From Escherichia coli (GTDB taxonomy: Bacteria; Pseudomonadota; Gammaproteobacteria; Enterobacterales; Enterobacteriaceae): a DNA stretch of 64,000 bases. The stretch lies in the NCBI RefSeq assembly GCF_050920415.1, contig NZ_CP169309.1. The stretch is one strand, 5' to 3'. Below are positions 27,263 through 54,441 of this stretch, piece after piece. Below the pieces are notes generated by a model. That model was not told the DNA's origin. It made no database searches and saw only the letters and a program-made list of their open reading frames with translations. A program made the translations under genes and the position numbers. Positions within the stretch are counted from its first letter, which is position 1, and every line of letters starts with the position of its first letter.

Positions 27263-27696
27263 CAGTGTTTCTCCTTTCGCCCGCCAGAGTAAAAAGCAAC
27301 CGTTTACGTTATTGAAACTGTCTAAACATATGCTCGTGGAGTGCCAGTTTTTGCGAGGAAGGGGAGTTAGAGACAGGAATTGCGGAGGCAATCACATAAT
27401 CGTGGTTAAACCACGAAAATGAGAAGAGAACCTGACAATGGAATTATCTGTAATTTTCTCATATTGATATTTCATTAATCATTCTGGCATGTCGCACTCT
27501 CGCATTTAATCGTTTTTATCTGGATAGCGCTCTTTTGGTCGGCAATGTTGAAATAATGAAAGCGGCACAGATTGAGGGGTAATAATTTGAACTTAGTCAC
27601 AAACTTATAATTAAAAAGTCATTCTACCTAATATATGCCCGTTTATTGCATCGCGAACTTTGAGAAGACATAACTCATTAAATGAAAGGGATGCAA

Positions 27697-34416: not shown

Positions 34417-34432
34417 GGCCGCCGAAGCGGCC
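34417..34432 (-). terminator. hairpin terminating the ygfK-ssnA-ygfM-xdhD transcript
   Basis: ggccgc-ttcg-gcggcc stem 10 nt downstream of xdhD stop, followed on the minus strand by tgtttctctgttt. Confidence 0.5.
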
Positions 34433-34441
34433 ATTTATTAT

Positions 34442-37312
34442 TTATATTTTTTCCAGCGCGGTGAGTATTTTCTCCGGTGTGAAATGCCATTCGCGTAACC
34501 AGATGCCGCAGGCATCGTGAATTGCGGTAGCAATCGCCGGAGCTGCGCCATTTACACCGATTTCTGAGATTGATTTCGCCCCGAATGGGCCGACTTTATC
34601 GTCGCTCGGCACCAGCACAGCGCGGAAATCACGCGGAATGTCACCAATTTTCGGTGCGCCGTAACTGCGTAAATCACGCGTTAACGGGTGGCCTTCGGCG
34701 TCATAAATGATTTCTTCGCTCATACTGTGCCCGATAGCACGCAGGGTGGCACCGTAGATTTGTCCCAACGCTAACTCTGGATTGACCGGTGTACCGCAGT
34801 CCAGCAAGGCATAGAATTTATCCAGGCGGATTTCACCCGTACGTGTGTTGACGGCAACTTCAGCAAAGTTTGCGCCATACGGGAAGGCGAAATCAGGCGT
34901 GATATAACTGGCAGTTCCCACCAGTGAACCAAAACCGGTGCCGGTTTCGCCTTTATGGGCAATATCACCGAAACTAACTTCGCCTTTCTTGCCGCGAACG
35001 ACACCCGGCGTTGCCAGTTGAACATCCTCCAGGGGTTCCCCCAGCATTTGTGCGCCGTGGAACAGGATTTTCTCTCGGAGGTTTTCTGCCGCCATACGCG
35101 CCGCGTTGCCGGAGAAACATGTACCGGACGAGGCATATGCGCCTTTATCAAACAGCGCATGATCGGTATCACCGGAGATAACATGCACGTCCTGCGGTGG
35201 GCAGTGCAGCACTTCTGCTGCCAGTTTCGTCACAACCGTATCCAGACCAGTACCAATATCCGCACCGCCAGAATGAACGATAAAGGTACCGTCTGATTCC
35301 AGTTTGATCATGCAGTTAGCCTGATCGATATCCGGGATCCCTGATTTCTGCATGATAATGGCGACGCCACGACCGATGTGCCAGTCACCGTTTTGTGGTT
35401 TTGGTGAAGACCATTGGATCATCTCGCGACCCTGACGCAGGATCTCTTCCAGTGCGCAGCTGGCGGCGGAAGGAACGGAGGTCGGCGCTTTACCTTCACC
35501 GATTGCACCGAGAATTTTCAGCTCTTGCCCTTCGTGTACCCGGTTACGTTCGATAATTTCCAGTTGGTCGATCTGTAACTGTTCAGCCAGTTCCGCTAAT
35601 GCCATGGTGATAGCGAAGTTACCTTTCGGTGCGCCATAACCCTGATAAGCACCATTTGGGCAAATGTTGCTGTAGTAGGTGGTGACCTGGAAATCGACGT
35701 TATCGCACGGATATAACGGCAGCGACAGCGCCGGTCCGTTACACGGTACGGTGAGTGAGTGGTTGCCGTAAGGGCCTGTGTTGGCGCGGAAATCCATCTT
35801 CACAGCCGTCAGGCGACCATCTTTCTTTGCCCCCAGTTTGACGGTGACTTTCGCGACGTGACGAGAGGTGTTAGCAATAAACTCTTCTTCACGAGTGTAG
35901 CGGAACAGTACCGGACGCCCGGTCACGCAGGTTGCCCAGGCGCACACTTCTTCCAGCAGGATGTCCTGTTTAGACCCAAAACCGCCGCCAACTCGCTCTT
36001 TAATGACATGAACTTTATGTTGTTTCATGCCCACGAGGCGCGCGACCTGGCGGCGTAAGTGCCATGGTACCTGGGTGGAGGCGTGGATAACCAGACGATC
36101 GCCGTCCATACGGGTAAAGCAGATATGAGTTTCAGTCGGGCACTGCTGCGCCTGCGTTGAGTTATAGGTTCGCTCAATGATCACATCGGCATCGGCAAAG
36201 CCTTTGTCCATATCGCCAATATGACCATGAATACTGGCGGCGATATTTTTACGGGGGCGAGAACCGATCGGGAAGTTGATGATCATATGCTCGCCGCGCT
36301 GGGCTGCATGGCTGTTATCGTCTTCCAGAGTATCTGGCGCACCAGCAACATACACCACCGGTTCATCGTGCACGACAGGCGCATCTTCCGCCATTGCCTC
36401 GTCAATCGACATTACAGGTTTAAGCACTTCATATTCAACGTCGATGAGCTTCAGTGCTTCGAGCGCAATTTCTTCACTTTCTGCGACGACCGCAGCAACG
36501 CGATCGCCGACGTGACGCATTTTCTTGCCGAACATACGGCGGTCAAGCGGTGACGGTTCCGGTGCGCTCTGACCACCCGGGGTGTAGTAGATATCCGGGC
36601 AATTCAGATGAGTAATAACGTGAACGACGCCTGGTAAGGCTTCAGCTTTGCTGACATCCAGGTGAGTAATCAGTGCGTGAGCGTGAGGGCTACGTAACAT
36701 TTTAATGACGCAGGCGTCAGCCGTTACGCGGTCTTCAACATAGCAGGGTTTCGCCTGCACCATTTTTGCGGCATCAGTTTTAGGATAATGCTTACCAATG
36801 ACTTCAAGGTCATCGCGGAAAGTCGGAGCGATATCAATGGTGGCCTGCGGGTTATTTTTACGTGCAACCGCCAGTTCAATGACCTGATAGTATTGTTGCC
36901 AGCCTGCATCGCGACTGAACAAACCAGAAAGCGCGTCGTCGATCTCTTCGCGGGTCGGTGCGGCGATACGCTCGAGCAGATCAGTGATAATCAGAGCAGC
37001 AGCTGGATCGTTATAACCAGACTGCACCACGCCAACATCAACCATTGCCTGTTGAACCAGACTTAACTCGTTCCATTTTCCCAGAGACTCTGCGGTACGA
37101 ATATTAGCCTTCTCTATCTGTGCGGCAATAAGTAAGGACGCGTTGACGATATTACCGTTAAAGATAATTGCGTCAGAACCGGCAAAACCGAATCCATCAT
37201 CGCTGTTGCGTACAGAGTGCATTCCCATGTTAAACAACAGCTTTTGCACGTTTTCACCAGGATTAACGGTTAGCTCCTGGGGCGTGCCATTTAATGTAAA
37301 GTGGATGATCAT
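34442..37312 (-). CDS. xdhD: molybdopterin-binding oxidoreductase subunit with N-terminal 2Fe-2S domain (xanthine dehydrogenase-like)
   Basis: 956 aa ORF recognised as XdhD (YgfN). Confidence 0.92.
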   Translation of the reverse strand: MIIHFTLNGTPQELTVNPGENVQKLLFNMGMHSVRNSDDGFGFAGSDAIIFNGNIVNASLLIAAQIEKANIRTAESLGKWNELSLVQQAMVDVGVVQSGYNDPAAALIITDLLERIAAPTREEIDDALSGLFSRDAGWQQYYQVIELAVARKNNPQATIDIAPTFRDDLEVIGKHYPKTDAAKMVQAKPCYVEDRVTADACVIKMLRSPHAHALITHLDVSKAEALPGVVHVITHLNCPDIYYTPGGQSAPEPSPLDRRMFGKKMRHVGDRVAAVVAESEEIALEALKLIDVEYEVLKPVMSIDEAMAEDAPVVHDEPVVYVAGAPDTLEDDNSHAAQRGEHMIINFPIGSRPRKNIAASIHGHIGDMDKGFADADVIIERTYNSTQAQQCPTETHICFTRMDGDRLVIHASTQVPWHLRRQVARLVGMKQHKVHVIKERVGGGFGSKQDILLEEVCAWATCVTGRPVLFRYTREEEFIANTSRHVAKVTVKLGAKKDGRLTAVKMDFRANTGPYGNHSLTVPCNGPALSLPLYPCDNVDFQVTTYYSNICPNGAYQGYGAPKGNFAITMALAELAEQLQIDQLEIIERNRVHEGQELKILGAIGEGKAPTSVPSAASCALEEILRQGREMIQWSSPKPQNGDWHIGRGVAIIMQKSGIPDIDQANCMIKLESDGTFIVHSGGADIGTGLDTVVTKLAAEVLHCPPQDVHVISGDTDHALFDKGAYASSGTCFSGNAARMAAENLREKILFHGAQMLGEPLEDVQLATPGVVRGKKGEVSFGDIAHKGETGTGFGSLVGTASYITPDFAFPYGANFAEVAVNTRTGEIRLDKFYALLDCGTPVNPELALGQIYGATLRAIGHSMSEEIIYDAEGHPLTRDLRSYGAPKIGDIPRDFRAVLVPSDDKVGPFGAKSISEIGVNGAAPAIATAIHDACGIWLREWHFTPEKILTALEKI

Positions 37313-38088
37313 ACGGCTTCCTCCCCAGCCTGTTGGCAGTCGGCATAAAGGTCGGCTACCAGAACTCCCGTGATATAGCGTTTATAGGCCACGCTGCCCC
37401 GCAAATCTTCCTGCGGGAAAATGGCGTTGGCGACAGCCTGTTCAAGGGCATCGCCTTCCAGGTTTTGTTTTTCAACATCGTGCAGACGCAGTGCTTTACT
37501 GGCCACGCCATCCAACGCAATTCGCATACCGTCGTGATCGGTTAACGCAACGGCTGCCGTTACTACCGTTAACCCAGCCTGAGAACGGCTAATTTTGCGA
37601 GTCGTACAGGTGCGATACGGATCTTTAATGATGATTTCGGTTAGCAGGCGATCGCATGGGCAGGCCAGGTACTCCTCAATTGACAGAGTTTCACCGTTGC
37701 CAAAAACCAGTTCGGCATCCAGTGCCAGCAGGACGGGAAGCAGCACCGACTCTTCCTGCCGGGCGGCGATTTCACCACCAATGGTCGACTGATTACGAAT
37801 ATGGCGAGAGTAGACAAAGCCGAGGGCCTCACGCAGTGCTGCAGGAATAAACCGTGCATCACGCAGTGTTTGCAAGCGAGACATTGCGCCAATCCGCAAT
37901 GCACCGTTATCCCAGTCAACCCAGTCCAGTTCCAGATCCTGTAAGGATATGGCAATCTTTTTATCGGTACGGGTTGGTGTGGCGTTGAGTTTACTGCCTC
38001 CGGCGAACCAGACGGCTTCATCCTGGTAGCGGCGCTTCAGTTCCAGCGCCTGTTCGACAGAGTCGGGCCTGAAAAATTGTTCAATCAT
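37309..38088 (-). CDS. ygfM: FAD-binding subunit of molybdenum hydroxylase (CO dehydrogenase flavoprotein-like)
   Basis: 259 aa; overlaps xdhD start by 4 nt. Confidence 0.9.
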   Translation of the reverse strand: MIEQFFRPDSVEQALELKRRYQDEAVWFAGGSKLNATPTRTDKKIAISLQDLELDWVDWDNGALRIGAMSRLQTLRDARFIPAALREALGFVYSRHIRNQSTIGGEIAARQEESVLLPVLLALDAELVFGNGETLSIEEYLACPCDRLLTEIIIKDPYRTCTTRKISRSQAGLTVVTAAVALTDHDGMRIALDGVASKALRLHDVEKQNLEGDALEQAVANAIFPQEDLRGSVAYKRYITGVLVADLYADCQQAGEEAV

Positions 38089-38138
38089 CTTCTTTCCTTA
38101 TTTAACCCTCTTCCCTGCGGGAAGAGGGTATTTGTCAT

Positions 38139-39467
38139 TTATGCCAGCGCATCCATCCGACGCCACATACTGGCAGCGGCTTTTTGGGCTTGCGCATAAA
38201 TGGAATCGCAATCGAAGTTAAACTGACGGTCTTCATAGACCATCATGCCATTGACCATCACGCTATGAACGCTGCCTGAGCCCATACCGAAAGCGATATG
38301 CCCGGCGATATTGTCTGCCAGCAGCGGCGTCGGCGAGTTGTAATCGCAAATGGTTAAATCGGCTTTGTAACCGGCTTCCAGAAGGCCAAATTTCGCGCCA
38401 AAATTGCGGCTCATCAGTTCGTTGCCGTTAGCCAGTGCTTTGGCAAAACTGTCAGGCCACAGCGGACCACCCGCATCGCGATGTTTAAAGAAGGCAAATT
38501 TCATCTCTTCAAACATATCTGAACCAATACCGTCCGTACCCAACGCCAGATTGCGGATGTCGCAAAGATGATGGTTGTAGCCGACATGGTTGTTCATGTT
38601 TGAACGGGCGTTATGCACCAGGAATGCATCACGCTGATTGAGCAACGCGATGTCGTCTTTAGACAGATAAAGCCCATGAGCGACCAGCGTTTTGCTGTCG
38701 ATGAGATCGAATTGCGCTAATCGTGCCAGCAGATCTTTGCCGTACCAGTGATGACTATGGGAAACATCGTAAAGGTCTTCCGCAGCGTGAATATGTAAAC
38801 CACGGCCTGTGGCTTTCACGGCCTCACGCAGCATTTCCAGACCGGCATCCGGCACAGTAAACGGCGCGTGAGCACCAATATGAGCTTCTACCAGATACGG
38901 TTCAGTTGCCGCTTTCTTCGCATCATCAATCTGACGGGCGAAGCGGATATTTTCCTCTACTCCTTCCTGTAGTTCTTTAATGCCGTTGTTACGGTCAGTG
39001 GTTTCAAAACAGGTCATCGCACGCAGGCCAACTTTTAAAAATGCGTTGCGCAATGTGGAGAGCGACCCGCTGATATACGCCGGAGAGGCATGGTGATCGA
39101 TAACAGATGTACAGCCGCTCTTAATCGCTTCCAGTGAACAAATCAGTCCGCTGTAATAGAGCGACTCTTCATCAAGGGCGCGATCGAGCCGCCACCAGAG
39201 ATTTTTCAGCGTTGAAATGAAATCCGGGCAGGGGGCGATGTTTGCCATAATTCCGCGGGACAGCCCCGAGTAAAAATGGTTGTGCGAGCAGACAATTCCC
39301 GGCATCACAATCCGACCATGCATCTCTTTGTAGTTGGCATCGGGGTAGCGTTGCGTCAGAGCATCGCCTATAGCGACAATCACATCATTTTCGATGGCGA
39401 TATCAACGCCTTCCTGCACTTTCGCCGGGTGTAACTGCACTGCAGTGACATTCTTCAGAATCAACAT
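38139..39467 (-). CDS. ssnA: amidohydrolase-family putative aminohydrolase SsnA
   Basis: 442 aa; metal-binding HxH near N-terminus (CSHNHFYSG). Confidence 0.9.
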   Translation of the reverse strand: MLILKNVTAVQLHPAKVQEGVDIAIENDVIVAIGDALTQRYPDANYKEMHGRIVMPGIVCSHNHFYSGLSRGIMANIAPCPDFISTLKNLWWRLDRALDEESLYYSGLICSLEAIKSGCTSVIDHHASPAYISGSLSTLRNAFLKVGLRAMTCFETTDRNNGIKELQEGVEENIRFARQIDDAKKAATEPYLVEAHIGAHAPFTVPDAGLEMLREAVKATGRGLHIHAAEDLYDVSHSHHWYGKDLLARLAQFDLIDSKTLVAHGLYLSKDDIALLNQRDAFLVHNARSNMNNHVGYNHHLCDIRNLALGTDGIGSDMFEEMKFAFFKHRDAGGPLWPDSFAKALANGNELMSRNFGAKFGLLEAGYKADLTICDYNSPTPLLADNIAGHIAFGMGSGSVHSVMVNGMMVYEDRQFNFDCDSIYAQAQKAAASMWRRMDALA

Positions 39468-39469
39468 GA

Positions 39470-42400
39470 TTACACCTCCACGCGGCCCAGCAGATAATGA
39501 TGATGCTGGTGGACATGGCTAATGATGCGGCACATATCGTTCAGCTCCGGTGGTACGTTGTTGAACTGACCTTCGCTGTCGATGTTTAACACCCAGCTTT
39601 GGTTATTCAGACGTACTCGTACCCGGCAATCTTCCACAAGGAAGCCTGGGTTGCTGCTGTTATCAAAGTCTTGCGACAGGCTGAAGACGGTGATTTTGTC
39701 TTTGTACGGTTTACCGTTCCACGGACAGAACTGAGCGCAGTTGCCGCATTCGTTACAGTAAGCGTCGAGGTGCAGCGTCTGGAAACGGTTCTGGAAGCCA
39801 GGGACCGCAATGGATACGTTGGCGCGGTTCGGGCAGACATCCACACACTTGCTGCAAACGTAGTTACATTCAAGGCAGCGTGCGGCTTCCTGGGCGACAA
39901 ACGCGTCACGATCGTCGCTATCCACCAGGGTGATAGAGATATCGCCTTTGCGTTGATAGATTTCCGCCGGATTAACGTTGTTCCAGTATTTATCGTTCTG
40001 GTGGGAACGGATATTTTCCCGACTAAGGATGGCATCGGTCGCCCGACGCGCGGTTCCGACAGCAGCGACAATGGAGGATGGTCCGCGCTGTACGTCGCCG
40101 ATCATAAAGACGTCAGTCAGACGAGTTTCGCCATTATGGTCGACGTCTGGCCAGCCGTTTTTGTCCAGCGGCACGCCCATCGCATTCAGGGCTTCAGTAT
40201 CCTGCTGTTCACCAATGGCGGTGATCAGGCTGTCTACATGCAGTGTAACTGTTTCGTTGGTTTCAACCGGACGGCGACGACCTTTCTCATCAGGTTCGCC
40301 AAGCGACATAACGCGCAAGGTTAAGGTGCCATCAGCATCGAAACGTTCCGGATTATTCAGGAAACGGAACTCCACGCCGTCGTGCAACGCTTCTTCATAC
40401 TCTTCGCGCCATGCTGGCATCTCTTGCAGTGAACGACGGTAAACGACTGTTGCTTTTTCTACGCCTGGAACGCGTAACGCCGCACGAGCGCAGTCCATTG
40501 CGGTGTTACCCGCCCCGACAACGACCACATGTTTGCCCAGCTTGAGCGCTGTGCCCTTGTTGTATTCACGCAGGAAGGGGAGTGATTTCCAGACATTTTG
40601 GTTGTCGCCCGCCAGTTTCACACCGCTATTTTTATCAGTGCCGGTGGCAATCAGAACATAGTGGAAGCCCTGATTTTTTAACTGTTCAACGGTCAGATCG
40701 GGTGAGCAGCCATACTCAAATTTCACGCCGTGAGCGGCAACAAAATCGATATCGTGCTGAATTAACTCTGCAGGAATACGGAACTGAGGAATGATATTTT
40801 TCACCACGCCGCCCGCATTGGCTTCGCGTTCAAACAGCGTAACCGGATGGCCCGCTCTGGCAAGGAAGTAACCTGCTGCCAGACCCGCCGGACCTGCACC
40901 AATCACGGCAACCGGATGGCGTGAACCAGAACCGGCTGGTTTGTGCCAGCGTTGCTTATATTCATCCCAACCTTTTTCCAGCGCGACTTTTTTCAGTTCG
41001 CGGATATTCAGCGCACTGTCGTAATCCAGGCGGGTACAGTTGTATTGGCACTGGTGATCGCAAATATGACCGGTAATGGCGGGCAGGGCGTTGCGTTGGT
41101 AGATGAGTTCCAGTGCGTCGGCATAGCGGTGTTCGCCAAGCAGACGGATGTATTCCGGAATATCTTGCTTGATAGCGCAGGCAGTAACACAGGGGGCAAC
41201 GTAGCAGTCGGTCAGCGGCAGGTCTTCTGCCACTTCAATACGCTCTTCTGGCTTCCAGTGTTTCTGGGTGTATTCCATGGTTAACGCGTCTGCTGCCAGT
41301 CTGTTCAGTCGTTCGACGTCAACGTGGTTAAGCTTCCAGGCGTCGGAGCCTTCCAGCTCGCGCATGCAGGCACTTAAGCGCAGATAGCCGCCAGGTTTCA
41401 GCAGGTCGGTTGCCATAGTAATAGGGCGAATACCAGTATCAAAAATATCGCGGATAGTCAGCTGACTGGCGCCACCGGAATAAGAAATGGGCAGTTTGCC
41501 GTCAAAGGCGCGAGAGAGAACTGCTGCAACATTGATGGAGAGCGGAAACAGCGCACGGCCTGACATATACATCTCTTCACCGGGCAGTGCACCTTTGTTA
41601 TTAATGGTGCCGAGGGTATTGGTCAGTTTGACGCCAAAGCCGAGTGATTTTTCTTTTGCCAGTGCCATCAGGCGTTCCAGCATTTCCAGTGCTTGCGTCA
41701 GCTTGAGGTCGTGATCAAATGACTCTTCTTTTAAGCCTATGTAACCGAAACCGCAGACATCGAGGATCTCACGAACACGCGCGTACCCCAGTAAGGTCGG
41801 GTTGAGTTTCACAAAGGTATTGAGCCCTTTTTCTTCCAGCATGTAGCGGCAAATGGCTTCGATTTCATGCGGAGGACAGCCGTGCATCGTGGAGAGGGTG
41901 ACGCCTTGTACCATGCTGGTGGGGATGCGTGCCGGTAAGGCCTGCAAGCATTCGCGTTTTTCCTGTAAGCCGTGGCGGGCTAAAAATGCGTCATCCTGGA
42001 GTAATTTATTCAGCGTATCGCGATATTGAGCGAATTTCGGATGGTCAGATGCGTCCATCATATTGTCGATGAACTGTTGCATCGGCGGTTGCTTAATACC
42101 TTCGAGGTTGTAACCGACGCTCATATTAAAGATGAACGATTTACCGGAATCAGAAGGCTGGAACATCGCTTCGAGAAGGTGCAGGGCAAACCAGGCTTTG
42201 AGGTATTCATCCCAGGCTTTAAGCAGGGTAAATTCGGTGGACCATTCGGTGTTAAAGCACTCGTCTTCGGCATCAATACAGGGCTTTTCCAGCTCCAGGC
42301 GGTCAAGAATTTGGACGGTTTTTAGTTCGATGAAGCGTCCGCCAGTCAGCCAGGATGTGACAATATTTTGCGCGAGCTGCGTGTGCGGACCAGCGGCAGG

Positions 42401-42568
42401 GCCGACGGGAGTGGCACAGGTTTCACCGAAGACGCTAACGGTTTTACCTTTTACGGGTGAGTAAAACTGTTGCTCGGGAATACCAAAGATTGAGCGTTGT
42501 TGTTGGTATTCATCAAATATGCGCGTCAAAAGTTCCTCAAACGGAATGGGACGCATAATATCCCCCAT
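39470..42568 (-). CDS. ygfK: large Fe-S / FAD-NAD(P)-binding oxidoreductase (GltD-like), putative selenate/Se-dependent hydroxylase subunit
   Basis: 1032 aa; dinucleotide fold [14 protein letters not shown] and Cys clusters near C-terminus. Confidence 0.9.
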   Translation of the reverse strand: MGDIMRPIPFEELLTRIFDEYQQQRSIFGIPEQQFYSPVKGKTVSVFGETCATPVGPAAGPHTQLAQNIVTSWLTGGRFIELKTVQILDRLELEKPCIDAEDECFNTEWSTEFTLLKAWDEYLKAWFALHLLEAMFQPSDSGKSFIFNMSVGYNLEGIKQPPMQQFIDNMMDASDHPKFAQYRDTLNKLLQDDAFLARHGLQEKRECLQALPARIPTSMVQGVTLSTMHGCPPHEIEAICRYMLEEKGLNTFVKLNPTLLGYARVREILDVCGFGYIGLKEESFDHDLKLTQALEMLERLMALAKEKSLGFGVKLTNTLGTINNKGALPGEEMYMSGRALFPLSINVAAVLSRAFDGKLPISYSGGASQLTIRDIFDTGIRPITMATDLLKPGGYLRLSACMRELEGSDAWKLNHVDVERLNRLAADALTMEYTQKHWKPEERIEVAEDLPLTDCYVAPCVTACAIKQDIPEYIRLLGEHRYADALELIYQRNALPAITGHICDHQCQYNCTRLDYDSALNIRELKKVALEKGWDEYKQRWHKPAGSGSRHPVAVIGAGPAGLAAGYFLARAGHPVTLFEREANAGGVVKNIIPQFRIPAELIQHDIDFVAAHGVKFEYGCSPDLTVEQLKNQGFHYVLIATGTDKNSGVKLAGDNQNVWKSLPFLREYNKGTALKLGKHVVVVGAGNTAMDCARAALRVPGVEKATVVYRRSLQEMPAWREEYEEALHDGVEFRFLNNPERFDADGTLTLRVMSLGEPDEKGRRRPVETNETVTLHVDSLITAIGEQQDTEALNAMGVPLDKNGWPDVDHNGETRLTDVFMIGDVQRGPSSIVAAVGTARRATDAILSRENIRSHQNDKYWNNVNPAEIYQRKGDISITLVDSDDRDAFVAQEAARCLECNYVCSKCVDVCPNRANVSIAVPGFQNRFQTLHLDAYCNECGNCAQFCPWNGKPYKDKITVFSLSQDFDNSSNPGFLVEDCRVRVRLNNQSWVLNIDSEGQFNNVPPELNDMCRIISHVHQHHHYLLGRVEV

Positions 42569-42640
42569 AACCCTCTCCTTAGCTTATACAGATATCATTG
42601 AGTGACCGGTGTTGAGAAATCCGGTGGTTTAGGGGGATAG

Positions 42641-42666
42641 AGCAACAATCGCACCACTCTTGCCAG
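42641..42666 (-). promoter_or_regulatory. candidate sigma-54 (-24/-12) promoter for ygfK operon
   Basis: Minus strand reads CTGGCAAGAGTGGTGCGATTGTTGCT: two overlapping TGGnnn-N5-TTGC-like spacings (TGGCAAGAGTGGTGCG and TGGTGCGATTGTTGCT), 70-95 nt upstream of ygfK ATG; ygeV sigma-54 activator encoded nearby. Confidence 0.35.
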
Positions 42667-42889
42667 GTTTGGCGGGAAATATAAAAAAATGTGAGGCGGC
42701 TCGAAACTTAAGGGCTTTTTGTGAATGAACTCACAGGTGCCAAATGAGAATTAAAATCACTCCTGGAAATTATTATTACCAGCCCATTTATCACTTTTTC
42801 TCTTTTCTCAAAATCAGTGATTCCTTATCATAATGATAAAGCAGGCTGGATGGTTTAAATATTTGAACGCAAACGTTTAACTACGTTTT

Positions 42890-43468
42890 CTAAATTTCAG
42901 TATACCTTTTTTGCGCTGTAATAAAGTCGTCCGGAGTATCAATATCTAAAATTATTTCTGCATTCTCTATTTCGACGGAATAATGTTCTCCCATAAGGAG
43001 TGCCTGACGCATATTGGTGACATTGGGTCGCTGGGTTGCCTGCATCAGGCATGGCTTTGACACTAAAATCGGATGGCCGGGGATACCTTTATGGAGTGGC
43101 AGTATTGCGCCATCATTACGTAACAACCAGATTTTTCTAAAAATATCGATGGTGAGGGTTGGCATGTCACCGTGGGTGAGAAAACAATGTTCGGTTTGCA
43201 CCGCGGGTACTGCGGCCTTTACTGATGTCAGTAAACCCTGCGCATAATTTGGGTTGTGGATAATAGTGATATTACTCTGGTTCGCATAACGTTCGTGCAG
43301 TTCATTACCACGATAGCCGGTGACTAAAATAATTCGGCTACAAAACTGCAACGCATTTTTGATACTTGCATCAAGAATTGTTCCCTGTTGCCAGGGTAAC
43401 ATCATTTTCCATTGCCCCATTCTTGATGATAATCCGGCAGCGGTAATTATACAGTCGATGGCTGACAT
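42890..43468 (-). CDS. mocA: molybdenum cofactor cytidylyltransferase
   Basis: 192 aa ORF MSAIDCIITAAGLSSRMG... recognised as MocA (YgfJ). Confidence 0.92.
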   Translation of the reverse strand: MSAIDCIITAAGLSSRMGQWKMMLPWQQGTILDASIKNALQFCSRIILVTGYRGNELHERYANQSNITIIHNPNYAQGLLTSVKAAVPAVQTEHCFLTHGDMPTLTIDIFRKIWLLRNDGAILPLHKGIPGHPILVSKPCLMQATQRPNVTNMRQALLMGEHYSVEIENAEIILDIDTPDDFITAQKRYTEI

Positions 43469-43570: not shown

Positions 43571-44341
43571 GTGAAAAGTATAGTTGACCCATCGGCATTA
43601 TTCATTGATTTAGGCGCGCAGAAACGTCCCACTGTGATTTCTGTTGTTGGGGCTGGGGGGAAAACCAGCTTGCTTTTTTGGCTGGTAGAACTGCTCCAGG
43701 CTAGCGGCAGGCGTGTGTTAATCACTACGACGACACATATGTTTATGCCAACGTCTCACTGGCCCGTGGTTTTCTGTCGTGATCCCGCCATGCTTCCTCA
43801 TGCGTCTCTTACATCCCCCATTTCATTTTGTTTTCACAGCTGGAAAGCGAACCAGGGAAAAGTGCAGGGATTTATGCCAGAAGCGATTGATGCACTGGTG
43901 CAACGACCAGAGTGTGACGTAATTCTCATTGAGGCTGATGGCTCGCGTGGAATGCCGTTAAAAGCGCCTGATGAGCACGAACCTTGCATACCCAAAAGCA
44001 GTTGCTGCGTGATTGCTGTGATGGGAGGACATATTTTGGGTGCGAAAGTGAGCACAGAAAATGTCCATCGCTGGTCGCAGTTTGCTGATATTACCGGGTT
44101 AACACCTGATGCAACCTTGCAACTGAGCGATCTCGTTGCGCTGGTTCGCCACCCTCAGGGCGCATTTAAAAACGTACCGCAAGGTTGTCGGCGAGTCTGG
44201 TTCATTAACCGTTTTTCTCAATGTGAGAATGCGATTGCGCAAAGCGAGCTCCTTCAACCGCTGCAACAACACGACGTAGAGGCAATCTGGCTGGGCGATA
44301 TACAAGAACATCCTGCAATCGCGCGCAGATTTGTGAATTAG
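43571..44341 (+). CDS. yqeC: putative selenium-dependent hydroxylase accessory protein YqeC (P-loop)
   Basis: 256 aa, GTG start; Walker A-like GAGGKTS. Confidence 0.88.
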   Translation: MKSIVDPSALFIDLGAQKRPTVISVVGAGGKTSLLFWLVELLQASGRRVLITTTTHMFMPTSHWPVVFCRDPAMLPHASLTSPISFCFHSWKANQGKVQGFMPEAIDALVQRPECDVILIEADGSRGMPLKAPDEHEPCIPKSSCCVIAVMGGHILGAKVSTENVHRWSQFADITGLTPDATLQLSDLVALVRHPQGAFKNVPQGCRRVWFINRFSQCENAIAQSELLQPLQQHDVEAIWLGDIQEHPAIARRFVN

Positions 44342-48472: not shown

Positions 48473-49684
48473 TTATTCGGTTGCCAGCCAGCTTAACGGG
48501 ATTGCAGCGTACATCGCGGCACAGGTCACCAGGTGAGATTTCCAGGTTTTTTCGTTAGGTGCATGCGCTTCAGGTTCTTTACCCGGGCCAAAGCCGATCA
48601 CCGGAATGCCGTGACGACCCATGATAGATACGCCGTTAGTTGAGAAGGTCCACTTATCAACAACCGGCGCTTTGCCAAACAGCCCTTCGTAGGCGTTCAC
48701 CAGGGCTTTAACAGTGAAGTGATCTTCTTCCACTTTCCAGGTCGGGAAGTAGCATTCGGTTGGGTAAACCAGGCCAGTCCAGGAAGGACGGTCGTAGTTG
48801 TACATAGAAACAACCGCGTTAGCTTTCTGTACCGCAGGCAGGGCGCGGATTTCGTCCAGCGCGCCTTCCCAGGTTTCGCCCCAGGTCAGACGACGGTCAA
48901 TTGAAACTGCGCAGCTGTCTGCTACAGCGCAACGGCTTGGAGATGTGAAGAAGATTTCAGAAACGGTGAGGGTGCCTTTGCCGAGGAATTCGTCATAGCC
49001 CAGGCGCTGGGAGAGTTCCTGCAATTCGCCAAGAATCGGACCCATTTTGAAAATGGCGTTATCACCGCGTTCTGGCGCAGAGCCGTGGCAGCTAACGCCC
49101 TGAACATCAATGCGAATTTCCATACGACCGCGTTGACCACGATATACCTGGCAGTCGGTTGGTTCGGTACTGACCACAAATTCCGGGCGAATGCCAGATT
49201 GTTCAATAATGTACTGCCAGCACAGACCGTCGCAGTCTTCTTCCTGCACAGTGCCGGTGACCAGCAGGGTGTATTCATCTTCCAGACCGAGGTCTTTAAT
49301 GATTTTACCGGCATAAACCATAGAGGCCATGCCGCCTTCCTGGTCGGAAGTACCGCGGCCACCGATCAGTTCATCAGTTTCCATGCCTTCGTACGGATCG
49401 AAGTCCCAGTTTTTGATGTTGCCAATGCCGACGGTATCAATATGAGCGTCCATTGCCACCAGACGCGGGCCGTGGCCGATATAACCGAGAACGTTGCCCA
49501 TCGGGTCGATTTCAACTTTATCGAAGCCGACTTTTTCCATCTCTTCTTTAATACGATGTACTACGCGTTTTTCATCGCAGCTTTCACTGGGAATAGCAAC
49601 CATATCGCGCAGAAAGCGAGTCATGTCTGCCTGGTAATCTTTTGCTTTTTCAAGAATCAGTTTGAATGGAATATTCTTAGCCAT
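48473..49684 (-). CDS. ygeY: M20-family peptidase / deacylase YgeY
   Basis: 403 aa ORF recognised as YgeY. Confidence 0.9.
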
Positions 49685-49741: not shown

Positions 49742-50938
49742 TTAAGGTGCTACAGAGTGTTTGCCTTCCCAGACAACTTCGCGGTAGTGCTTCACGTCGG
49801 TGTCGCCTTCAGTGCTGATAACCAGCACCACTGCATCTTTGTTCAGCGCCAGTTTTTCCATCAGGCTTTGACGTTGCGGGTGATAATGAACCGCCGCGAG
49901 AACGCCTAAACCGACAGCGCCGGATTCACCGGAGATGATGCGCGGGTCGTTGCCGTACGGATTACCCAGCACGCGCATACCTAATGCGGCAACGCTGTCC
50001 TGGCAGGAGATGAATTGGGTGGCGCAGTTACGTAGGATTTCCCAGCCCAGTGGGTTAGGTTCGCCGCAAGCCAGGCCCGCCATGATAGTGGCCATATCGC
50101 CGCCAACGTTGACGATGTCGCCTTTGACACCAGAACGATAGATACAGTCAGCTTTGTCAGGTTCAACAATAATGCTGTGCAGATTTTGCGGGCTGTAGAC
50201 GTCGACCAGATAACCCAGTACGCCGCCGGCCATCGCGCCGACACCGGCTTGCAGCAGAACGTGAGTTGGGGTTACGCCCATTTCACGCATTTGCTCGACG
50301 GCTTCATCTGCCAGAGTGGCATAGCCCTGCATAATCCAGGTTGGGATTTTGGTGTAGCCTTCCCAGGCGGTATCTTGCACCACTTCCCAGCCGTGTTGCT
50401 GCGCGTGTTGCATGGTCAGGCGAACGGTATCGTCATAGTTCATATCAGTGACGATGCACTCGGCTCCGAGGTTCAGAATGGCGTCAACGCGTTCCTGAGC
50501 GGAACCTTTCGGCATGTAAATTACCGCGTTCTGACCGAGTTGCTGTGCTGCCCAGGCAACACCGCGCCCGTGGTTGCCGTCGGTCGTTGTAGCAAATGTC
50601 ATTTTTTCGCCGATGGCATTTTTCAGATGCTCGAATGACAGTGTTTCGATATCAAGATGATATTTTTCGCACAACAACTGAGCGATGGCATATGCGCCGC
50701 CGAGCATTTTGAATGCGTTCAGACCGAATCGTTTTGATTCGTCCTTAACGAGAATTTTTTTCACCCCAAAAAGGTTTGCGAGATCGTCCAGCGCGCAAAG
50801 TGGTGTTGGGCGATAGCCAGCAATTTTCTGGTGGAACTGGCGCGCCAGTTTTGCCTGGCTTTGCGAAAAGAGCGGTGATGTTTCGCCGTTGAAAAATTTG
50901 TTATCGGCGATATCAATCTTCAATGAGAAAACGGACAT
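49742..50938 (-). CDS. dpaL: 2,3-diaminopropionate ammonia-lyase (PLP-dependent)
   Basis: 398 aa ORF recognised as YgeX/DpaL. Confidence 0.92.
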   Translation of the reverse strand: MSVFSLKIDIADNKFFNGETSPLFSQSQAKLARQFHQKIAGYRPTPLCALDDLANLFGVKKILVKDESKRFGLNAFKMLGGAYAIAQLLCEKYHLDIETLSFEHLKNAIGEKMTFATTTDGNHGRGVAWAAQQLGQNAVIYMPKGSAQERVDAILNLGAECIVTDMNYDDTVRLTMQHAQQHGWEVVQDTAWEGYTKIPTWIMQGYATLADEAVEQMREMGVTPTHVLLQAGVGAMAGGVLGYLVDVYSPQNLHSIIVEPDKADCIYRSGVKGDIVNVGGDMATIMAGLACGEPNPLGWEILRNCATQFISCQDSVAALGMRVLGNPYGNDPRIISGESGAVGLGVLAAVHYHPQRQSLMEKLALNKDAVVLVISTEGDTDVKHYREVVWEGKHSVAP

Positions 50939-52187: not shown

Positions 52188-52662
52188 AAAGTCCCGGTAG
52201 TGGAATGACAGGCAAAGTGGTTTATTTCACTGTGACTTGCCAAAGTGATTGGTGTTTTCACAGCTATACCAGGGACTAACAATAAGTGTGCCAGAATTAT
52301 CCACGCGGCTATAAAAGACTAATTTGACGGGTAATGTGTGGTGTAGATCACAAATTGATGCCAGCTTCCGGTTGTGTGTAAAATACGAAAACGTTTGGCT
52401 TTTTTTATTGCGTTGTTTATTTGCTGCTAAGTATCAGAAATAAGATAAAGGGGCAGGCTATCCCTCGTCAGTTTGATAAACTCACCGCTGTAATTCTCAT
52501 ATTGATATAGAAATGTGATATCTCTTCCATAATTTCATTAGAAAGTGATAAAAACCTTATGTTTTTATCAAAGCCAATTTCGCCTGAGTTAATATCATGA
52601 TGATCTGTGAACCATCAACGTCTTCAATGATCGACTTTTAAGTAAGTCTGGAAGGTAAAGCT

Positions 52663-54441
52663 ATGGAGCTTGCTACTACGCAGTCAGTATTGATGCAAAT
52701 TCAACCGACAATTCAGCGTTTTGCCAGAATGCTTGCCAGCGTTTTGCAGCTTGAGGTTGAGATCGTTGATGAAAACTTGTGTCGCGTCGCCGGAACGGGT
52801 GCGTATGGGAAGTTTCTTGGCCGCCAGTTGAGCGGCAACTCACGCCTGCTCCGCCACGTCCTGGAAACGAAAACTGAAAAAGTTGTGACACAGTCTCGCT
52901 TCGATCCCCTTTGCGAAGGTTGCGATAATAAAGATAATTGTCGCGAAAAAGCATTTCTGGGTACGCCTGTCATTTTACAGGATCGTTGTGTTGGGGTGAT
53001 AAGTTTGATTGCAGTTACCCACGAGCAACAAGAACATATCAGTGATAATTTACGCGAGTTTTCTGATTACGTTCGCCATATATCCACCATTTTTGTTTCG
53101 AAACTTTTGGAGGATCAGGGGCCAGGAGATAACATCAGTAAAATATTCGCGACCATGATCGATAATATGGATCAGGGCGTTTTAGTTGTTGATGACGAAA
53201 ATCGGGTTCAGTTTGTTAATCAGACTGCCTTAAAAACACTCGGTGTTGTGCAAAATAATATTATTGGGAAACCTATCCGTTTCAGACCATTAACATTTGA
53301 GAGTAATTTTACCCATGGACATATGCAGCATATTGTTTCGTGGGACGATAAAAGTGAATTAATCATTGGTCAATTGCATAACATTCAGGGCAGACAATTA
53401 TTTTTAATGGCGTTTCACCAATCGCATACCAGTTTTTCTGTAGCAAATGCACCTGATGAACCGCATATTGAACAATTGGTTGGCGAGTGCCGTGTTATGC
53501 GGCAATTAAAACGACTCATTAGCCGTATTGCGCCCAGCCCATCCAGCGTTATGGTGGTTGGTGAAAGCGGCACGGGTAAAGAAGTCGTCGCGCGTGCAAT
53601 CCATAAGTTGAGTGGAAGACGAAATAAACCCTTTATTGCTATCAACTGTGCCGCGATTCCTGAACAACTTCTGGAGAGCGAACTATTCGGTTATGTTAAA
53701 GGCGCATTTACTGGCGCTTCAGCCAACGGTAAAACAGGGTTGATTCAGGCGGCGAATACGGGCACGCTGTTTCTCGATGAAATTGGTGATATGCCATTAA
53801 TGTTGCAGGCTAAATTACTGCGCGCTATTGAGGCGCGTGAAATACTGCCGATTGGTGCCAGTAGCCCAATTCAGGTCGACATCCGCATCATTTCTGCAAC
53901 TAACCAGAATTTGGCCCAGTTCATTGCCGAAGGTAAATTCCGCGAAGATCTCTTCTACCGACTTAATGTTATCCCGATCACTCTTCCACCGCTGCGTGAA
54001 CGTCAGGAAGATATTGAACTGCTGGTACATTACTTTTTACATCTGCATACCCGTCGTCTGGGATCGGTTTATCCGGGTATTGCTCCCGATGTCGTCGAGA
54101 TATTGCGTAAGCATCGTTGGCCCGGAAACCTGCGCGAGTTAAGCAATTTAATGGAATATCTGGTTAACGTTGTTCCTTCAGGTGAAGTTATCGACAGCAC
54201 GCTATTGCCGCCAAATTTGCTGAATAATGGCACAACGGAGCAAAGTGATGTAACAGAGGTCAGCGAGGCGCACTTGGCACTCGATGATGCGGGCGGCACG
54301 GCGCTGGAGGAGATGGAAAAGCAAATGATCCGCGAGGCGCTTTCACGTCATAACAGCAAGAAGCAAGTTGCTGATGAACTGGGTATCGGCATTGCTACGC
54401 TCTATCGCAAGATAAAGAAATATGAGTTGTTAAACGCATAA
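52663..54441 (+). CDS. ygeV: sigma-54-dependent transcriptional activator (bacterial enhancer-binding protein)
   Basis: 592 aa; AAA+ core with Walker A GESGTGKE and GAFTGA sigma-54 contact motif; C-terminal HTH. Confidence 0.93.
   Translation: MELATTQSVLMQIQPTIQRFARMLASVLQLEVEIVDENLCRVAGTGAYGKFLGRQLSGNSRLLRHVLETKTEKVVTQSRFDPLCEGCDNKDNCREKAFLGTPVILQDRCVGVISLIAVTHEQQEHISDNLREFSDYVRHISTIFVSKLLEDQGPGDNISKIFATMIDNMDQGVLVVDDENRVQFVNQTALKTLGVVQNNIIGKPIRFRPLTFESNFTHGHMQHIVSWDDKSELIIGQLHNIQGRQLFLMAFHQSHTSFSVANAPDEPHIEQLVGECRVMRQLKRLISRIAPSPSSVMVVGESGTGKEVVARAIHKLSGRRNKPFIAINCAAIPEQLLESELFGYVKGAFTGASANGKTGLIQAANTGTLFLDEIGDMPLMLQAKLLRAIEAREILPIGASSPIQVDIRIISATNQNLAQFIAEGKFREDLFYRLNVIPITLPPLRERQEDIELLVHYFLHLHTRRLGSVYPGIAPDVVEILRKHRWPGNLRELSNLMEYLVNVVPSGEVIDSTLLPPNLLNNGTTEQSDVTEVSEAHLALDDAGGTALEEMEKQMIREALSRHNSKKQVADELGIGIATLYRKIKKYELLNA

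Follow-up and report, generated by a model that had tools for sequence, protein, structure and literature searches.

The spacer in front of ygfK on the Escherichia coli chromosome raises the question whether the operon beginning with this gene is transcribed from a sigma-54-dependent promoter, which of two overlapping -24/-12 motifs would then be the functional one, and which further elements control it. The stretch concerned, positions 42666..42641 on the minus strand (CTGGCAAGAGTGGTGCGATTGTTGCT), is located in a piece of 64,000 nucleotides (the window), which was matched at 95–100 % identity in 5171 of 5426 complete genomes. A preliminary description of this DNA had noted GG-N10-GC spacings here, 70–95 nt upstream of the ygfK start, and had proposed a sigma-54 promoter of the ygfK operon. 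The sequence reads as stated and comprises two such registers overlapping each other; counted from the ATG at 42568 the stretch lies 73–98 nt upstream, close to the distance given. It is embedded in the 321-nt spacer between mocA, whose stop codon is found at 42890, and ygfK.

The downstream register, called register B here (GTGGTGCGATTGTTGCT; 42657..42641, minus strand), has its -24 GG contact at 42655-42654 and its -12 GC contact at 42643-42642. Register A (CTGGCAAGAGTGGTGCG; 42666..42650, minus strand) overlaps it and is situated 9 nt farther upstream. Both the orientation and the position of register B, intergenic, on the minus strand and 73 nt before the ygfK ATG, fit a sigma-54 promoter. 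From the -24/-12 geometry, by the rule of Bonocora et al. (2015) which places the start 11 nt past the end of the motif, a transcription start is predicted at 42630 (± about 2 nt, minus strand), leaving a 5' UTR of 62 nt. The coordinates of all elements with a sign are relative to 42630.

A sigma-54 promoter of ygfK has already been published, so that as a discovery it adds nothing to the E. coli record. Zhao, Liu and Burgess (2010; PMC2831329, Table 2) listed ygfK as a new candidate of the sigma-54 regulon. In their microarrays the gene was up 2.1-fold 5 min after induction of sigma-54 and down 2.4-fold in an rpoN deletion, both small effects of about 2-fold, and the promoter was drawn as aaccTGGCAAGAGTGGTGCGATtgtt, which is register A (PMC2831329). 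Later, ChIP-seq revealed the site OS31 with the motif GTGGTGCGATTGTTGCT on the + strand and a fold above threshold of 26 (Bonocora et al. 2015; PMC4591121, Table 1), a signal above those of glnA (21) and pspA (21). Its peak centre is 3014019, the gene assigned is ygfK at a distance of 62, and the EcoCyc status is given as "P" for predicted (PMC4591121). Just 5 of the 22 candidates of Zhao et al. were confirmed in that study, ygfK among them; most of the candidates were judged to be false positives, but ygfK was confirmed as bound (PMC4591121). Where a site lacks transcript data, Bonocora et al. speak of a "binding site" and not of a "promoter" (PMC4591121). Occupancy of the ygfK site by sigma-54 RNA polymerase, in the form of a closed complex, has been shown by others. 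OS31 of E. coli K-12 and the site in the window share the identical 17-mer GTGGTGCGATTGTTGCT, a predicted start 62 nt before ygfK and the same neighbourhood; the site itself does not differ, the window being from another E. coli strain and showing the locus in reverse orientation. The control region around this known core appears to be undescribed, and what is added here is the choice of the register, the breadth of its conservation, a helically phased candidate enhancer and a three-input architecture.

For scoring, a position weight matrix (PWM) of 17 columns was built from 130 ChIP-seq motifs of Bonocora et al. (2015), with five sites in the window excluded. Register B scores 14.18 bits with this leave-out PWM, compared to a training median of 14.4, and ranks 60th against the 130 training sites; with both strands scanned it is the third best match in the window. 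Scores at this level occur about 2.2 times per window of 64 kb in dinucleotide shuffles, so the PWM score alone is not decisive and becomes persuasive only together with the position: taken over the 305 spacer positions with the right orientation, its P value is about 0.002. A search with the consensus TGGCACN5TTGCW alone, allowing up to 2 mismatches, shows no enrichment in the window (42 matches vs 43.4 expected). The second-best match of the window, ATGGCGCAAACTTTGCT (34862..34878, minus strand; 15.4 bits), sits within the 3' end of xdhD, some 585 nt before xanQ. Chance is its probable origin, since the high-stringency ChIP list does not include it and even E. whittamii lacks a conserved copy.

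The comparison between species was done with one genome per species and yielded 80 ygfK loci, including those of Escherichia, Citrobacter, Klebsiella, Serratia, Edwardsiella, Morganella, Aeromonas, Photobacterium, Vibrio and Shewanella. For 76 loci, the highest-scoring plus-strand PWM match in the 400 nt before ygfK corresponds to register B by homology, scoring at least 11.6 bits (median 15.2) at a distance of 53–161 nt from the ATG; the opposite strand of these regions mostly stays below 8 bits. The 76 matches comprise 32 distinct 17-mer variants, in which TGG at positions 2–4 and TGC at positions 14–16 never change and positions 6–12 vary, as one would expect of contacts at the -24 GG and the -12 GC. 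The sequence flanking register B cannot be aligned, although TGG and TGC are invariant, and the upstream region as a whole consists of discrete conserved blocks between unalignable sequence. Comparative and experimental evidence together, namely the 76 of 80 loci, the invariant TGG/TGC and the ChIP-seq signal, are decisive for register B being a real site.

Register A could still be the functional one, or both registers could act as tandem promoters. It has the correct GG-N10-GC spacing with a near-consensus TGGCAA, it is the register published by Zhao et al. (2010), and a shift of 9 nt is below the resolution given by the width of a ChIP-seq peak. On the other hand its score of 8.27 bits is background (50 matches in the window vs 50.1 in dinucleotide shuffles), and the OS31 peak centre is nearer to the centre of register B (18 nt) than to that of register A (27 nt). 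Furthermore, the median of register A in other species is -16 bits, with 6 bits or more only in three genomes of the Escherichia clade, to which TGGCAA is confined; this hexamer is not conserved in an alignment of 26 Enterobacterales sequences. A functional register A, alone or in tandem, is therefore highly improbable. Leave-out PWM and phylogenetic footprint both lead to the choice of register B, which is the true one of the two registers in print; TGGCAA-N5-GTGC is a coincidental overlap and no second promoter. Of the two alignments offered in the preliminary description, which had also suggested a scan with an RpoN PWM, TGGTGC...TTGCT is borne out by score and conservation, whereas TGGCAA...GTGCG has to be dropped as background restricted to the Escherichia clade.

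Upstream of register B the spacer contains a CRP site with a perfect 10/10 core, TGTGA-GTTCAT-TCACA (42720..42735, no strand assigned; centre -97.5). It is the only CRP core without a mismatch in the window, where up to one mismatch gives 6 matches vs 1.85 expected, and in most Enterobacterales it is fixed at -70 from the start of the motif. In genomic SELEX, ygfK, ygeV<>ygeW and ygfT<>ygfU were found as CRP targets (Shimada et al. 2011), and CRP-like sites at 42720, 52337 and 27586 match these three. Urate degradation in E. coli is known to be repressed by glucose. An IHF consensus with up to one mismatch was found nowhere in the mocA-ygfK spacer, and for this reason the CRP site together with a T-tract at about -50 is the likely bending element.

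The perfect CRP site could in principle also serve a sigma-70 promoter, and this touches the question whether sigma-54 binding at ygfK is productive. Many sigma-54 ChIP sites are without a known transcript, and a scan of the spacer found no terminator between mocA and ygfK, so that read-through from upstream could contribute. That sigma-54 is bound unproductively, and that ygfK owes its transcription to a sigma-70 promoter or to read-through from mocA, is nevertheless very unlikely. A sigma-70-like hexamer pair was not found on the ygfK strand of the spacer, and the CRP centre at -97.5 keeps a fixed position relative to the sigma-54 motif across genera. The sigma-54 motif, a phased palindrome farther upstream (see below) and the spacing between them are conserved over the gammaproteobacteria. 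The ygfK mRNA responds to rpoN dosage, and ygfK is co-regulated with other sigma-54 operons of the cluster, a gene set that mocA does not belong to. As a whole, the site is best explained with high confidence as the -24/-12 core (42657..42641, minus strand) of a sigma-54-dependent promoter of ygfK-ssnA-ygfM-xdhD. The initial proposal of such a promoter is thus well supported by the OS31 ChIP-seq site, the rpoN-responsive mRNA and the 76 of 80 loci.

The most conspicuous element of the remaining control region is a perfect palindrome, TTATCA-TTA-TGATAA (42825..42839, no strand assigned), whose centre is at about -202 and which is a candidate enhancer (UAS) for YgeV. At 70 of 72 ygfK sites the form TATCA-N3-TGATA precedes the sigma-54 motif by 90–240 nt; other sigma-54-like matches in the 80 loci have the palindrome upstream in 12 of 85 cases and downstream in none. 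The distances between palindrome and promoter fall into classes of 146, 155, 167, 175.5, 179, 187.5 and 197 nt, for which the best phasing is obtained with a period of 10.5 bp (R=0.80, Rayleigh p=0.007); from species to species the distance thus shifts by whole turns of the helix. The length changes are located between the palindrome and the promoter-proximal blocks, and the latter keep a fixed spacing to the promoter.

A palindrome PWM built from non-E. coli copies only has its top match of the window at 42825 (21.8 bits). The identical 15-mer TTCTCATATTGATAT (18.3 bits) is found at 52494..52508 in the ygeV-ygeW spacer and at 27456..27470 in the uacT-ygfT spacer, about 207 nt and 170 nt upstream of the respective sigma-54 motifs, and further matches at 58333 and 58312 lie upstream of the sigma-54 site of xdhA. 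Altogether 8 matches of at least 10 bits are present in the window vs 1.7 in shuffles, all of them inside the purine cluster. The palindrome is thus the cis-element common to the upstream regions of ygfK, ygeV-ygeW, uacT-ygfT and xdhA. Intragenic copies of the type TnnTCA-N3-TGAnA with 11.6–15.4 bits also exist in yqeC (44215..44229), dpaL/ygeX (50649..50663) and ygeY (49434..49448); the one in yqeC follows the intragenic sigma-54 promoter published for this gene (43972..43988, plus strand) at a distance of about 230 nt downstream. A Fur box was considered as the identity of the palindrome and rejected, as the central N3 and the flanks vary across species, unlike in a Fur box. In the literature neither a published description of this palindrome nor a definition of the YgeV site was found.

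The gene ygeV (52663..54441) is about 10 kb away from the promoter stretch in the same cluster, as had been pointed out at the outset, and its product is a sigma-54 enhancer-binding protein with a PAS domain (162-205), Sigma54_activat (272-439), AAA_lid and HTH_8 (548-587); a domain search detected no receiver domain. The annotation of the 41 kb around ygfK includes no other enhancer-binding protein. The published YgeV iModulon includes ygfK, ssnA, ygfM and xdhD and excludes xanQ, guaD and ghxQ. In addition, the expression of ygfT falls in a ygeV mutant according to a prior study as cited by PMC10602906. Dependence of ygfK on YgeV is accordingly plausible by indirect evidence, and co-occurrence makes the palindrome a candidate for the YgeV enhancer.

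A sigma-54-dependent promoter may also be served by another activator, for example NtrC, in which case the palindrome would be the site of a different regulator. The neighbouring intragenic sigma-54 promoter of yqeC responds to nitrogen limitation, the palindrome has been linked to YgeV by co-occurrence only and could be bound by another factor, and its E. coli variant loosely resembles AT-rich operators. Against this stand ygeV as the sole gene for an enhancer-binding protein in the cluster, the iModulon and the ygfT effect just cited, and the palindrome marking four sigma-54 regions, with its excess of matches confined to the cluster. Homologues of YgeV within 6 kb of ygfK are present in just 3 of the 80 loci; in Lonsdalea and Symbiopectobacterium, where such a homologue is encoded upstream of ygfK, this neighbourhood likewise favours YgeV. 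An activator other than YgeV is therefore unlikely, but deserves more weight than the rival readings of the promoter itself. In Lonsdalea britannica and Ca. Symbiopectobacterium the homologue has 54–55 % identity and is on the opposite strand, and both loci show high-scoring sigma-54 motifs on both strands as well as the palindrome variant TTCTCAAAATGAGAA.

Besides palindrome and CRP site, the alignment of the 26 Enterobacterales sequences shows a conserved block TTTTGAGAAAA (42803..42813, minus strand). Within it a TGAGAA half-site is placed two helical turns downstream of the palindrome, and the block may serve as an additional, weaker site for the activator. The strongly conserved block TGATTTTAATTCTCAT (42744..42759, minus strand; -129 to -114) keeps a fixed distance from the promoter. 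TTTCGA-N6-CTCACA (42690..42706, minus strand; centre about -67), conserved to a similar degree, resembles a degenerate CRP half-site and is found at -40 from the start of the motif from Escherichia to Aeromonas and Photobacterium.

Just past the mocA stop codon a PurR-like operator of the LacI-family type, GTTAAACGTTTGCGTT (42866..42881, minus strand), has two mismatches to ACGCAAACGTTTTCNT, and its GCGTT half is kept in several genera. Such boxes are present in three spacers with sigma-54 promoters, the other two being located at 52385..52400 (ygeV-ygeW) and 27294..27309 (uacT-ygfT); with up to 3 mismatches the window contains 8 matches vs 2.9 expected. We propose here an architecture with three inputs, i.e. 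activator, CRP and PurR-like operator, as a candidate common to the sigma-54 promoters of the cluster. On the basis of the sequence comparisons the balance tips slightly towards a combined reading, in which the palindrome conserved from Escherichia to the Vibrionaceae would be the YgeV enhancer that defines a urate regulon, CRP would replace IHF as the architectural bender and a PurR-like operator would provide the third input. If this is true, the urate (2,8-dioxopurine) regulon consists of xdhABC, ygeWXY-hyuA, ygfK-ssnA-ygfM-xdhD and ygfT.

On the transcribed side, the predicted 5' leader contains a conserved hairpin ACCGG-loop-CCGGT (42605..42625, minus strand; +6 to +26). RNAalifold with 21 Enterobacterales sequences predicts 5 pairs of the GCCGG/CCGGC type, two of them with compensatory changes, and the hairpin may lend stability to the mRNA at its 5' end. 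An Rfam scan of spacer and leader matched no family. The transcription unit ygfK, ssnA, ygfM, xdhD (34442..42568, minus strand) was delimited by annotation, gene overlaps (ygfK/ssnA and ygfM/xdhD) and a terminator-like site. Directly 3' of the xdhD stop codon a GC-rich hairpin, GGCCGCTTCGGCGGCC, is followed by a T-run (34432..34417), and judged by its sequence it is likely to terminate the operon before xanQ.

These elements suggest the following course of initiation. The closed complex formed at register B would have to be opened by an ATP-driven enhancer-binding protein, most likely YgeV, which would bind the palindrome about 200 nt upstream and contact the polymerase by DNA looping. The necessary bend of the DNA probably comes from CRP at -97.5, which would also give the promoter its glucose sensitivity. 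Transcription is predicted to start near 42630 and to produce the 62-nt leader opening with the small hairpin. In the reductive uric-acid pathway 2,8-dioxopurine is dearomatised by the flavin reductase YgfK, whose gene is strongly induced by urate in MG1655, likewise ygfT. The ygfK operon encodes the core of anaerobic uric-acid degradation by gut bacteria, a pathway that is at present being built into probiotics to counter hyperuricaemia. The fixed register, the candidate YgeV enhancer, the CRP site and the PurR-like box provide precise targets for mutagenesis, reporter studies and re-wiring.

The closest relatives of the ygfK promoter are the sites of xdhA, ygeW and ygfT in the same cluster (OS29, OS30 and OS32), in which the -24/-12 motif is likewise intergenic and is preceded, 100–210 nt upstream, by a TnnTCA-N3-TGAnA palindrome; the ygeW and ygfT spacers in addition have a CRP-like site and a PurR-like box. 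They differ in the core, which is TGGTGC at ygfK and TGGCAC/TGGCGT at the other three, in the ChIP signal (26 vs 3–11) and in the perfect CRP core that only ygfK possesses. A more distant parallel is the catabolic sigma-54 promoter of prpBCDE in E. coli and Salmonella, whose enhancer-binding protein, PrpR, is specific for the pathway and which is subject to CRP-mediated catabolite repression. However, the prp system uses IHF and has its activator gene adjacent and divergent, whereas at ygfK no IHF consensus was found in the spacer and ygeV is 10 kb off. The clostridial "DioR" regulon (Nie et al. 2019; PMC6615313) resembles ygfK in its predicted sigma-54 promoter and its control by an enhancer-binding protein, with ygeW-ygfK-ssnA-ygeY and the cofactor genes yqeB/yqeC as targets, but it belongs to a different phylum and has a different operon structure.
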